64,000 bases of DNA from Candidatus Hydrogenedentota bacterium (GCA_034669905.1 JAXMOL010000024.1:1-64000), one strand, 5' to 3'; shown: positions 7,270-50,616, counted from the stretch's first letter. Notes: generated by a model from the sequence alone, not told the origin. Made by a program: numbers and translations.

Positions 7270-8166
7270 TCAGGGAGCGAAGATGCGATCGTAGCGGCCC
7301 ATGAAGCGGCCACTGTCCACACTGACCGGGAAACGGTCGGCGGGGTACTTGATGAACTCCACGTGGCCATCGAGATAGAGCACATTGCCACCCCCTGGCA
7401 CGTGAGCGAAGGCACCGGCATTGGCACTGATGTGATCCCACATGAGCGGCACGTTGCTCGACGACGCGGCCGTCGCAGCCGGGTTGTTGATATCGGTAAT
7501 CAGAAAGCGCTCGATACCCTGTCGGAGGCGATAGAGGGTGTCTCCCCCACCGGCCTGGGTGCCGGCGTAGGTGGCCGACACCGTGAAGTCTTCATCACTG
7601 GCATCCCCGTTGGTGGCGATGTTTTCCAAGGCCAATTCGCCAAAGGGCGTGTTCATCATTTCCGCCGACGTGAAACGGTGGCCATTGGCAGCATCGGAGC
7701 CGAGGGTCCCCACCAGGGGGCCGAGCACGTTGACATCATCCATAATCATCCAGCCGGTGTAATCATAGGGACCGCGGGCCAGTTCCGCCGGTTCAATCAC
7801 GCCGTTATCATTCCCCTTGACACCGTCATACCGCGCCAGGGCCGAGCCCCGGGAATCCGACGGACACCAGACGGTTTCCAGGTCGGAGAGGTACTCGGGA
7901 TAGACGGCCGGTCCGTCAAAGATGTGCTCGAAACTCAGGTCACCGAAGACGTCAAAAACGAGGCGCGATGGATAGCGATTGCCCCGACTCTCGTTGGCAT
8001 ACATGGTCAGGGACAATCCGAGTTGCTTCAGATTGTTCTGACAGGATGCCCGCCGTGCCGCCTCCCGGGCCCGTGCCAGTGCGGGGAGCAGGATAGCTGC
8101 CAGGATGCCGATGATGGCGATGACCACCAATAACTCAATTAACGTAAAACCACTGCGAATACGAAT
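7270..8166 (-). CDS. Prepilin-type N-terminal cleavage/methylation protein with DUF1559 and an H-X9-DG-like C-terminal motif
   Basis: [67 protein letters not shown]. Start uncertain: ATT at 8166 after SD GAAAGGG, or GTG at 8238 or 8268. Confidence 0.9.
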
Positions 8167-39953: not shown

Positions 39954-46571
<6,618 letters not shown>

Positions 46572-46957
46572 GATACCCCCTCCCGGAGACTGCCGTAATT
46601 CAGTTTTCCCAAGAAACTTTACCGTGTGATTGTAGCAATATGTGACGCGGAAGACCAGCAAAAACATCAAACTGTAAACTATTGACAGTAGAACAGTTAC
46701 AACGCTTGCCAAACCCCGGGCCAATGGGCTATATTCGTTGCGTACTTGGGCACAGAGCAAGGCGCTCTATCAACCGGGGGAGCCACTGCTGTGGACACGC
46801 AAAGAGCAAGCGACCATATGGGACGGTCTGGCATACCGTCTCATCACGGCGTGGTCCAAACGCAGGGATCACGATGGGCGTTTCAATATGTCGTAATCCC
46901 CCGCAAGAGGGCCATACAGGCCACCACCCACTACCGTTCCGAGGGAGTTTAACCATC

Positions 46958-49675
46958 ATGAACCGATTGAAACGCGTATTGGGTCCCTGGGGAATTTGTC
47001 TCGCGGTATTGCTTGTCGCCGGAAGCGCTCTGGGCCTCGCGCGCTCCATCTGGGAATTTAACCCCTTCGCCCTGCGGAACGGAGCCACCCAGGCCTCCTG
47101 CCAGAACAACCTGAAGCAGGCCGGCCTGGCGATTCATATGTACTTCAACGAGTCACGGGGGGGCGACTATCCGCTTTTGAGTGATGAAGCCAACAACATT
47201 TTTTTCCATTGGCAGGAACTCTACCCCCAGTTTATCAACGACCGCGATGTGTTCGTATGTCCGGGTCCGGCAGGCGATGCCCCCGCCAACACGTTTACCG
47301 ATAAGTACTATGTCTATACAGGCTATTTCCTCCGCAATCAGGAGGACTTGGATGCCTTTGCAAGCGCCTATACGGCAGAGGTTGCAGGCGATGCCGATTT
47401 CACAGAAAACCTGCCCGGCCCCTCGAGCTACGGTGAGGAAGTCTACCGCCTTAAGGATGGTATCGAGCGTTTTTTCATTACCGATATTAACGATCCCAGC
47501 GGATATTACAAAATCCGCTCCGAGACGCCCGTAATGTGGGAGTGGCCCGACAACCACGACGCCGGTCATGGTGCCAATGTTCTGTATCTGGACGGCCACG
47601 TGGAATGGGTAAACTACGGAGAGAAGTTTCCGGTAACCGAAGAAGCAACGGCCACCCTTGCGGCACTGGCCCTCTACACGCCGCCGACGGATTGGGGAGA
47701 AAACGGTGAATACGTTTCGGACTATGCAACCATCAGCCCTTTCCCCAGCAAGTGCATCAACAACATGAAGCAGATTGGCCTGGTAAATGCCATGTTCTCC
47801 AACGAGTCGGCAGGCGAAGCATTCCCGCCACTCAGCAGCGAAGGCGGCCGGCTTATGTGTGACGCAGAATCGGTCCACCCCGAGTACATCAATGATCCGA
47901 TCGTGTATAACTGTCCGGGACGTGTCGCGTCTGAACCCACCGCGCATTTTGACGACAAGGACTACGTCTACCTGGGCTATCTCATGATGACGGACGGCGA
48001 CGTCCAGCAATTCGCCACTGCGTACAACCAGACCATCGGCGCAGGCGGCGATTTCACCGGTGATTTAACTATCAGCACCAGCTATGGCCCGACCATGTAT
48101 CGCATACGCGATGGGGTTGAGGAATTCGTCGAAATAGAAATCACCGAGCCGACGCAAGATCAGATAACGACCAGTGACATCCCTGTACTGCTGGAGTGGC
48201 CGGAGAATCACGAGGGGAATAGCGGTGGTCATGTCCTCTTCATGAGTGGTCGCGTCGAGTGGATGCCCTATCCCGGTGAATTCCCCATGACCGAAACGAC
48301 CATCACCACCCTGCGGGCCTTGGCGCAGAACACGCCCGCTACGACTTGGGCCGTGGAGCCTCCCCGTCCGGAACCCTACCTCTACATTGGGGAATGCAAC
48401 AATATCTTGCGTCAATGGGGCCTTGTCGACCGCATGTATTCCAACGAATCCCAGGGACAGTTTTGGCCGCCCCTCTCCCTCACCCCCGGAGAACTGGCTC
48501 CCAGAGATGCTGAAGTCTATCCCGAATATGTAGCGGATCGATACTTGGGAGCCTGTCCAGGAGCCGAAGACGAAGGGGAGGTGGAACATTTCGATGACCG
48601 CCATTACGTATATCTCGGCTACGCCATGTTGAACGACAGTGACATGCAGCAATTCGCCACCGCCTATAGCGCCGAAATCGCAGCGGGCGGGGATTTTTCT
48701 GAGGACCTTGTCATTTCGAGCAGCTACGGCGATTCGCTGCTCCGCCTGAAAGAAAACGTCGAAAGTTCCATCGTCATAGACAATGGCAACCCCATTTACC
48801 TGACAGCGGCCCGTCGGGACATCCCCGTCATGATTGAATGGCCCGGCAATCACGAAGGCCAGACCGGCGGCAATGTGCTCTACCTCGATGGCCATGTGGA
48901 GTGGCACGACTATCCGGGCGAATTCCCCATGACCGAGGCGACCATCACTGCATTGGATAGTATTGCCGACTGGACACCAACAACGGCCTGGACCGTGCCG
49001 CGTTTCCCCGGACCCCATGATGAATATGACCACGCGCTGTGCGCAGGCAACGAAAAGCAATTCGGTTATTCGTTCAAGATTTACGCCAACGGCGCAGAGG
49101 GAGAATTCTATCCACCGCTCTCGACCACGGCTGGAAACCTGATGACAGAGGATGCCCGATTCCTGCGCTATTATCTGCGCGACACACGCCGTATGAATTG
49201 CCCTGGCTCGCCGAATGCCTATCGCCAACCCACGGTCGCCGACCACAGTTACGCCTATTTGGGCTACCTCGTTTACAATCAGGAGACGCTGGAGCAGTTT
49301 GCGACTGCCTACCAGCAACAAGCGGCCGGGGGCGGTGACTTTACGGAAGATCTCGTGCTGGGCGAAGAGACCATTCCCCGACTCCGGGAAGGTATCGAGC
49401 GTTTTCTAATCACCGACATTCACGACCCGGGGCTCTCCTTCCCCTCCCAACGTAACATTCCGGTGCTCGTGGAATGGCCAGACAACCACGGCCAGATACG
49501 CGGTGGTAACGTGCTCTATATGGACGGGCGTGTGGAATGGCTCGATTACCCCAGCACCTTCCCCATGACCGAGGAAGCGATGGATATCCTGACTGCGCTC
49601 GCGGGAAGAGGCCCTATCCGGCCTGCAGCCCCGCCCCGGGAAAGCACGCGCCTGGAAGCCCTCTCCGGCGGCTGA
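46958..49675 (+). CDS. Secreted protein made of four tandem DUF1559/H-X9-DG-like units
   Basis: RBS GAGGGAG, ATG 46958; Sec-like signal. Units begin at Cys codons 47099, 47753, 48395 and 49040. Each has CxxN..Q.G...YxN, CPG, YxYxGY, WPxNH, GxxVLY/FxD/SGxVEW and FPxTE. Confidence 0.9.
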   Translation: MNRLKRVLGPWGICLAVLLVAGSALGLARSIWEFNPFALRNGATQASCQNNLKQAGLAIHMYFNESRGGDYPLLSDEANNIFFHWQELYPQFINDRDVFVCPGPAGDAPANTFTDKYYVYTGYFLRNQEDLDAFASAYTAEVAGDADFTENLPGPSSYGEEVYRLKDGIERFFITDINDPSGYYKIRSETPVMWEWPDNHDAGHGANVLYLDGHVEWVNYGEKFPVTEEATATLAALALYTPPTDWGENGEYVSDYATISPFPSKCINNMKQIGLVNAMFSNESAGEAFPPLSSEGGRLMCDAESVHPEYINDPIVYNCPGRVASEPTAHFDDKDYVYLGYLMMTDGDVQQFATAYNQTIGAGGDFTGDLTISTSYGPTMYRIRDGVEEFVEIEITEPTQDQITTSDIPVLLEWPENHEGNSGGHVLFMSGRVEWMPYPGEFPMTETTITTLRALAQNTPATTWAVEPPRPEPYLYIGECNNILRQWGLVDRMYSNESQGQFWPPLSLTPGELAPRDAEVYPEYVADRYLGACPGAEDEGEVEHFDDRHYVYLGYAMLNDSDMQQFATAYSAEIAAGGDFSEDLVISSSYGDSLLRLKENVESSIVIDNGNPIYLTAARRDIPVMIEWPGNHEGQTGGNVLYLDGHVEWHDYPGEFPMTEATITALDSIADWTPTTAWTVPRFPGPHDEYDHALCAGNEKQFGYSFKIYANGAEGEFYPPLSTTAGNLMTEDARFLRYYLRDTRRMNCPGSPNAYRQPTVADHSYAYLGYLVYNQETLEQFATAYQQQAAGGGDFTEDLVLGEETIPRLREGIERFLITDIHDPGLSFPSQRNIPVLVEWPDNHGQIRGGNVLYMDGRVEWLDYPSTFPMTEEAMDILTALAGRGPIRPAAPPRESTRLEALSGG

Positions 49676-49737: not shown

Positions 49738-50616
49738 TTGTTAGAACTACCCTACGCCCTGTCCGCCTTGTGCGCCCTCACGGCCGCATTCCTGGGCTGG
49801 CGCTATGGCCACACCCTCTACCAGCGGGGCGTGCGGCTCACCGGGCAGATTCGTGTCCGGGATTGTCCCCTTATCCCGGTCGTATTGGGCCTCTTTCTGG
49901 TCGCCCACATCCTGACGTCCACCGTCACGGGAAACCCCGTCGTCGGATGGGCCCTTCCCCTCTGGCTGGAATACTACCTCACCGTCCTCTTGTGGGCCAT
50001 GAAGGTGGCCTTCGCCGCTTTTCCACTCGGCGCTATCGGCACGGTCAGCTATCTCGAAAAACATCGCTTTCGCTATCCCCTGTTGCTGTTCTGCGGGGTC
50101 GTCGTCCTCAGCATCGATACCCTGATCCGGCTCTCTGTGCAGCCCTATCTGGAAGACATTACCCATCGGACCAAGAACGGGGTCATCCTCCAGTCCACGC
50201 CCTCCACCTGTGCCGCCGCGTCGGCGGCCAATATAGCCCGCCACTTCGGCATCGATGTGGATGAAGCCCACATGGTCAAGCTCCTCGGCACCACGTGGGC
50301 CGGCACCAGCCCCGCACAACTGGTCTATGGCTTCGAAGCATTGGGCCTGACGGCGACCAAGGCCTATTCCCAATCGCGGGATATCCGCGAGATCCAGCCT
50401 CCCGCCATCCTCTTCGTCCCGGTGGGCGAGGAACCCGATGCCCATGCTGTCGCCTACATGGGGCCACGGCCGGGAGGCTTTGCCATCTGGGACCCCAGCA
50501 GTGGACCCCAGCTGAAATCCAGGGAACAAATCCAGAGCCATTGGGGTGGGCGGGCCATCGAAGTGCAGACCGATTCATCGGGCCGTGTTGAGCAGGATCC
50601 ACGTCGGGTGATATGA
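49738..50616 (+). CDS. Membrane protein with a C-terminal C39-like cysteine peptidase domain
   Basis: About 4 TM helices, then LQSTPSTCAAAS (Q, Cys), GTS, AHAVAY (His), IWDP (Asp), WGGRAI. Confidence 0.8.
   Translation: MLELPYALSALCALTAAFLGWRYGHTLYQRGVRLTGQIRVRDCPLIPVVLGLFLVAHILTSTVTGNPVVGWALPLWLEYYLTVLLWAMKVAFAAFPLGAIGTVSYLEKHRFRYPLLLFCGVVVLSIDTLIRLSVQPYLEDITHRTKNGVILQSTPSTCAAASAANIARHFGIDVDEAHMVKLLGTTWAGTSPAQLVYGFEALGLTATKAYSQSRDIREIQPPAILFVPVGEEPDAHAVAYMGPRPGGFAIWDPSSGPQLKSREQIQSHWGGRAIEVQTDSSGRVEQDPRRVI

Follow-up and report, generated by a model that had tools for sequence, protein, structure and literature searches.

A conserved four-head protein of leaderless DUF1559 pilin-like heads, apparently undescribed, in Candidatus Hydrogenedentota

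Introduction

In planctomycetes and their kin, the DUF1559/H-X-DG proteins form one of the largest families of paralogues and are assumed to be pilins. Passages in three reports treat DUF1559 as a large set of paralogues whose function is unknown (PMC10632474, PMC4807772, PMC2754498); Planctopirus limnophila is given there 68 DUF1559/H-X-DG proteins, two of them essential (PMC10632474), and Tuwongella is credited with 91 family members that carry a prepilin motif (PMC8567305). The class III helix at the start of a prepilin is the assembly interface of type IV filaments, according to the relevant section of a 2014 review (PMC4471445).

Four described systems come close to the protein reported here. 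The DUF1559/SBP_bac_10 (PF07596) and TIGR04294 (pre_pil_HX9DG) prepilins have a homologous head, with the same cysteine helix and C-terminal DG motif. The passage on Tuwongella immobilis in PMC8567305 lists three Sec/SPI proteins with an SBP_bac_10 domain and no prepilin motif, two of which turned up in every cell fraction; that the leader can be lost is therefore already published. These proteins share with ours a DUF1559 domain, an ordinary signal peptide and the missing prepilin motif, but they belong to another phylum, and the passage describes no domain repeats, structure or family for them (PMC8567305). More than one pilin fold per chain, by duplication or fusion, is known from Clostridioides difficile PilJ (PDB entry 4ixj), the only dual-fold pilin named in the section of the 2014 review on this subject; PilJ, however, is a minor pilin with just two folds and so counts as a class III filament subunit (PMC4471445). 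Finally, four distinct heads come together in the HIJK tip, and Streptococcus sanguinis PilB and PilC use pilin scaffolds in adhesion, but in the account available the HIJK heads are separate chains, each with its class III helix, and adhesion by PilB/PilC comes from grafted non-pilin modules (PMC10628169).

Here we describe a protein with four such heads in one chain, encoded in a 64,000-nucleotide stretch of Candidatus Hydrogenedentota DNA (the window). The initial annotation knew of no description of this architecture, and our search of the literature, mostly open papers, likewise found none of a multi-head DUF1559 protein or of a four-head array. The four-head architecture is real and conserved, and apparently undescribed.

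Gene and repeat structure

The gene encodes 905 residues and contains four units of about 200 residues each. Its features and the single-head comparator, in window positions, are as follows.

46941..46947, plus strand: Shine–Dalgarno-like GAGGGAG, 10 nt before the ATG (from the sequence)
46958..49675, plus strand: four-head protein gene (P0002), 905 residues, start shared by homologues
46958..47035, plus strand: N-terminal signal, residues 1–26, with a basic N-region, a hydrophobic stretch and Ala-Leu-Gly; predicted signal peptidase I type, not class III
47081..47680, plus strand: unit 1, residues 42–241, pilin-fold head, Cys48/Cys101
47735..48334, plus strand: unit 2, residues 260–459, Cys266/Cys319, SGR in place of DGH
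48377..48976, plus strand: unit 3, residues 474–673, Cys480/Cys533
49022..49612, plus strand: unit 4, residues 689–885, Cys695/Cys748, distinct tree clade (SH-aLRT 99)
7270..8166, minus strand: comparator prepilin (7270 prepilin), single head, with N_methyl, PF07596 and TIGR04294

The first cysteines of the units are residues 48, 266, 480 and 695 (in CQNNLKQ, CINNMKQ, CNNILRQ and CAGNEKQ), the CPG cysteine is kept in all four, and the units follow one another at 654, 642 and 645 nt, exactly as annotated. The linkers (TPPTDW, TPATTW and TPTTAW) are 23–27 residues long. Pairwise identity among the units is 39–49% over 195–199 aligned residues, far above chance, and RLxxGIERFxITDIxxP is common to units 1 and 4 and the 7270 prepilin. 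The repeat, its cysteine motifs, the TPxTxW linkers and the link to the 7270 protein were thus all annotated correctly. The conserved DG end stood only in part: the SG of unit 2 (GHVLFMSGR) is real, but it is a private change, since SG is found in one of 30 homologous unit-2 sequences; unit 4 has DGR; and the distance from His to DG is 11 residues in all four units (10 in the 7270 prepilin), a literal X9 being absent. Compared with the DUF1559 prepilins, the protein differs in its four heads, its lack of an N_methyl leader, its His-X11-DG spacing and its shorter inserts.

Four head matches and no N_methyl match in an HMM check had been named as support for the array. The latter part held, but only unit 1 passes both head models alone. 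Against PF07596 (cut-off 23.3 bits) the whole protein scores 32.1 and unit 1 25.9 bits, over about 24 of the 268 model positions (6–27), with 15 bits for unit 2 and no match for units 3 and 4. The TIGR04294 scores (cut-off 19) are 40.6 for the whole protein, 20.3 for unit 1 alone, and 16.1 and 12.1 for units 3 and 4. A profile built from the four units retrieves annotated prepilins, and a search with unit 1 found 1,430 proteins, PF07963 and PF07596 being present in most of the 120 matches listed.

Conservation over 117 units is high at His200, Asp212 and Asp115 (97% each), Arg164 (96%), Glu216 (95%) and His214 (93%), and at both cysteines (97%), while the variable ten-residue windows have mean conservation of 0.36–0.51 compared with 0.68–0.81 in the C-terminal motif. 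One reading of this pattern is that the individual heads bind a metal or a small solute, or act catalytically, through the Asn-His, the Asp-Gly-His, the Glu, Asp115 and Arg164, four heads raising the capacity. The 93–97% conservation of these candidate residues, the sensor-like fusions of leaderless heads described below and a passage that calls the PF07596 family solute-binding (PMC2754498) would agree with it. Against this, unit 2 has lost Asp and His and unit 4 His while the reading frame is undisturbed, the structural matches are to pilins, and a structural role would suit the position of the motif, in a β-meander turn common to all the family's prepilins. We regard a binding or catalytic site of this kind as quite unlikely.

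Fold and packing

The model of unit 1 was computed from 119 single-head homologues, mostly prepilins, and has a pLDDT of 88.9. When it was compared with 48,161 solved chains, rows 1–21 were all type IV pilins or pseudopilins, the best being Thermus PilA4 (Z 5.6, r.m.s.d. 3.2, 97 residues aligned) and Vibrio EpsG (Z 5.4, r.m.s.d. 3.0, 94 residues aligned). A Z of 5.6 is middling, and the alignment covers about half of the unit; we make the pilin-fold claim because the structural list is consistent and the sequence is linked to prepilins, and not for the Z values. Unit 1 models as a type IV pilin head, with α1-C on an antiparallel β-meander. The four-head protein matches PilJ with a Z of only 3.3, and differs from it in its four heads and lack of a class III signal. 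Foldseek with the unit model gave no match at E 0.001, and rescoring of its 528 chains gave one row, PilV, with Z 4.9; a search of the Atlas returned only unnamed or DUF1559 clusters, at 0.90–0.92. No solved structure of a DUF1559/H-X-DG head was found, a sequence search of solved structures giving matches to pilin leader helices only.

The full-length model, for which 32 family members were used, has a pLDDT of 84.2 and a pTM of 0.70 and shows the same secondary structure in all four units; together with the unit-1 list, this agrees with the earlier proposal that the units fold like pilin heads. The pTM lies above the value of about 0.31–0.38 expected for freely moving domains, a baseline that is a rough estimate, and the model therefore implies packing. 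Unit 4 is predicted to pack near unit 1 in a fixed arrangement. In seven of 50 structural rows a single pilin chain aligns across unit 1 and residues 712–723 of unit 4. A two-chain prediction with residues 36–468 and 469–890 (score 0.02, mark 0.32) has no bearing on packing either way. Model confidence is low at linker residues 250–260; the linker Trp is conserved and confidently modelled.

N-terminus and export

The protein was annotated as having a Sec-like N-terminus without a class III signal, and this was borne out. No N_methyl (PF07963, TIGR02532) or GFxxxE match occurs in the 905 residues, in which the hydrophobic stretch precedes the Gly; no prepilin motif lies in the 104 in-frame codons 5′ of the ATG; and the motif is absent from all 32 members of the four-head family. 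An upstream start at 46682 was ruled out, as it brings in no prepilin motif and the homologues begin at 46958. With no prepilin motif and no α1-N helix for any head, the protein cannot be a filament subunit by the accepted assembly rule. Sec export with signal peptidase I cleavage after Gly26 is predicted. All 17 homologues with the same N-terminus have the −3/−1 small-residue pattern at the aligned place, although this pattern is permissive and the homologues are kin. Residues 2–65 form two helices in the full-length model, like a pilin stick, which would be compatible with an uncleaved anchor.

Within the family the four-unit cassette directly follows the signal peptide in 17 members, an Ig-like region in ten and another domain in one; four are truncated. 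Nine of the ten Ig-preceded members contain, besides a membrane segment, a second signal-like segment placed internally, and in none of these nine does a membrane helix adjoin unit 1; P0020 has an added C-terminal membrane anchor. If the N-terminal helix remained uncleaved, the protein would be a type II inner-membrane protein whose four heads face the periplasm, as in the single-head membrane paralogues. Most leaderless single heads do follow a membrane helix, and the model runs the hydrophobic helix on into α1-C, but the conservation of the −3/−1 pattern (17/17) and those family members that have a C-terminal anchor, or whose internal signal lies at a distance, argue for cleavage; we find retention of the helix improbable.

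The mid-chain pair in P0016, P0017, P0019, P0023, P0026, P0027, P0029, P0031 and P0032 (mostly at about residues 125–190) consists of a Pro-led membrane segment with a basic tail and the second signal-like segment. The pair is flanked by two Ig-like regions, as though a single gene encoded two exported products. The mid-chain segment of P0017 has a weak, below-cut-off match to NF033207 midcut_by_XrtH (E 0.44).

Distribution of the four-head family

The homologue search found 59 proteins among 7,999 scored candidates. The four-head family comprises 32 members including the query, with identities of 42–65%, and all named homologues are from Candidatus Hydrogenedentes/Hydrogenedentota. Four units are present in 30 members (one unit being cut short in four of these), the other two are fragments with three, and none of the 32 has five. 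The nearest neighbour of a unit is one at the same position for 112 of 117 units; unit 4 forms a clade (support 99), and units 2 and 3 mix in the tree. A search for multi-unit homologues in related genomes had been proposed, and the 31 found keep four position-specific units; because the family sets overlap and their members are kin, these counts are not independent. Three longer proteins (1,585–4,525 residues) cover at most 24% of the query, which is weak evidence, and no longer array is therefore indicated. The gene has a patchy distribution, occurring in eight of 135 Hydrogenedentota genomes from three families, and a complete genome of the same genus lacks it.

Leaderless heads and their fusions

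The unit profile matches 62 ORFs in this genome: 47 prepilins, 13 single leaderless heads, one three-head protein and one four-head protein. The statement that DUF1559 proteins are normally prepilins with an N-methylation motif holds for 47 of the 62, but with 15 head-bearing ORFs lacking the prepilin motif the leaderless form is no exception in this phylum. As leaderless heads are common here, the four-head protein is less singular than first thought.

In a quick, unrooted tree of 99 rows, made without bootstrap, the 47 prepilins and one degenerate copy are split from all other heads (SH-aLRT 99), and this branch separates the units of the four-head protein from all 47 prepilins of the genome. 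The quick tree suggests that the four units belong with the leaderless heads and not with the 7270 prepilin, although shorter inserts may help this grouping. Descent from the 7270 prepilin is unsupported, as that protein falls on the prepilin side. The 7270 gene has no ATG, GTG or TTG near its leader, and at the usual distance after GAAAGGG there is an ATT (window 8166–8164, minus strand), at which it may start; the database copy (P0169) has 285 residues and no N_methyl domain.

Among the best 150 of 3,651 clusters at 50% identity, found with a profile that favours leaderless heads, none has a prepilin motif before the head. One head is present in 132 of these clusters, two in eight (some of them fragments), three in four, four in five and none in one. 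Multi-unit forms, with 17 of the best 150 clusters and eight of 135 genomes, are thus not common, in line with the earlier view; distant tandem forms may occur in other phyla.

The leaderless head also stands at the C-terminus of BlaR1/M56, sigma-70 and zf-HC2 proteins, where it is predicted to be an extracytoplasmic domain; further fusions join it to TPR, ankyrin, DUF3352, DUF4190 and carboxypeptidase-regulatory domains. The C-terminal extracytoplasmic place in such regulators is usually that of an input or binding domain, and these fusions of the same head argue for a binding role.

Several arrangements of leaderless heads were observed. P0035, P0037, P0188, P0191 and L025:2928–7619 are BlaR1/M56 peptidase proteins with two or four leaderless heads, the M56 protein P0035 having four more distant heads that are separate from the four-head family. 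In this genome (G000), genes for single leaderless heads, each preceded by one or more membrane helices, lie in tandem at C57:16074–19806, C18:26353–29736, C23:62498–64199 and C5:123929–125998, with three consecutive on C57 and a similar run of four in L027. At G000 C63:34943–36556 and C5:124829–125998 a leaderless head ends a sigma-70-like protein and a putative zinc-binding anti-sigma factor (assigned by eye); homologues of the sigma-70-like head protein carry PF04542. An independent three-head membrane protein with a Pro-rich N-terminal region is encoded at G000 C36:32415–34679 (minus strand), and three heads are kept in four clusters.

Locus, neighbour and allele variation

The four-head gene diverges from a gene for a large surface protein.

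46572..46957, no strand: divergent intergenic region, 386 bp, sequence unconserved among four aligned loci
39954..46571, minus strand: head-to-head neighbour and candidate partner, with (Pfam) a signal peptide, β-helix, TSP3, LRR, cadherin/Ig, EF-hand and a C-terminal membrane segment

The alignment of the four loci contains no shared intergenic element. One sigma-70-like match lies at 46706–46735, promoter and terminator counts being about those of chance, and an Rfam scan of the window gave no matches. The neighbour is a surface protein of 2,200 residues in which two long runs of the Gly-Glu dipeptide, three LRR blocks and the EF-hand precede the membrane tail; its length and middle domains vary among relatives (1,445 residues with PKD in L021).

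The N-terminal region of the neighbour (E 1e-50) is found at four places in three of 135 genomes, two of them in one genome, and at all four it is head to head with the four-head gene; the fifth copy of the four-head gene in the genus is at a contig end. At the same threshold the neighbour is absent from the four cassette-bearing genomes outside the genus. The pair occupies different sites in different species, and simple joint inheritance may account for the linkage.

How similar two alleles are does not track how closely their hosts are related. In G007, SerB and the ATPase are 94% and 95% identical, yet the allele is 52% identical over 472 residues; in G003 the corresponding values are 84% and 81%, with 64% for the allele (65% and 73% for units 3 and 4). 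The four-head gene has a dN of 0.29–0.45 compared with 0.03–0.08 in flanking genes, with dS near saturation and dN/dS well below 1, so that diversifying selection is unproven. Positive selection was considered and is unsupported, dN/dS being below 1. The substitution pattern would fit old alleles exchanged under purifying selection.

Downstream, 49738–50616 (plus strand) encodes a stand-alone membrane protein that contains a C39 peptidase domain, lacks an ABC domain and is present in nine of nine genus genomes. The gene follows the four-head gene here and in two close relatives and is not adjacent to it in G001 and G003, by which it was ruled out as the processing enzyme. The initial annotation had offered a processed polyprotein as one of three functions; in this reading the chain would be cut at the TPxTxW linkers into four separate heads. 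The C39 gene where it is adjacent, the 23–27-residue linkers and the low confidence at residues 250–260 could be taken to favour this, but besides the want of adjacency in G001 and G003 the linkers have no known cleavage motif, their Trp is conserved and modelled with confidence, and the pTM of 0.70 suggests packing. Processing into single heads is highly improbable.

No pilus gene lies beside the four-head gene at any locus inspected. Elsewhere G000 has eight full-length matches to PilB/GspE-like ATPases and one match to a prepilin peptidase; 63 ORFs of the whole genome have the [12 protein letters not shown] motif. The protein might instead be a single-chain mimic of a tip, its four position-specific heads copying a HIJK-type complex of four minor pilins, docking through head–head contacts on a type IV filament or type II pseudopilus, and presenting or chaperoning cargo, for example the β-helix/LRR neighbour. 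The unit number fixed at four with position identity, the compact full-length model, the ATPase and prepilin peptidase matches, and the proposal that HIJK presents effectors at the tip (in a passage of PMC10628169) speak for docking. Known tip subunits, however, each retain the class III helix, as far as the relevant passages go (PMC4471445, PMC10628169), pilus genes are missing from the inspected loci, and related two- and three-head arrays are parts of BlaR1-type membrane proteins, for which a tip role is hard to imagine. Docking on a pilus is in our judgement unlikely.

Conclusions

The annotated idea of a concatenated, non-polymerising head array stood as regards pilin-fold heads, the absent class III signal and the Sec-type N-terminus; of its three functions, multivalent binding fits best. 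We put at about 0.5 the probability that the protein is exported and serves in the cell envelope, off the pilus, as a compact multivalent binding protein, this being a candidate function. Cleavage after Gly26 would release an acidic protein of 879 residues (133 Asp/Glu, 51 Lys/Arg) to the periplasm or the cell surface. One predicted Cys–Cys bond would close each head, and the packed heads would keep fixed positions, unit 4 lying close to unit 1, as in the one model. The conserved C-terminal β-meander (WPxNH-X11-DGH..EW..YP..FPMT) would serve as the scaffold, specificity would come from the variable α–β loop and the segment after RLREG, and avidity from the four heads. In the genus the protein may act with the β-helix/LRR neighbour, as its binding partner or on the same target, and alleles may swap between species, like those of variable surface proteins. 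A tentative and more specific form, which we hold to be unlikely, is a single-chain four-headed pseudo-tip: a closed unit without a pilus that recognises the β-helix/LRR neighbour or its target and is swapped as an allele.

The four-head protein, the leaderless subfamily and the regulator fusions argue that the DUF1559 head is an independent binding module. The protein is predicted to be soluble and has a candidate partner next door, so that structure and binding are directly testable, which gives a handle on an orphan family. If the pseudo-tip were true, this would be the first protein to consist of leaderless pilin heads alone, and it would offer a ready-made soluble handle on DUF1559 binding.
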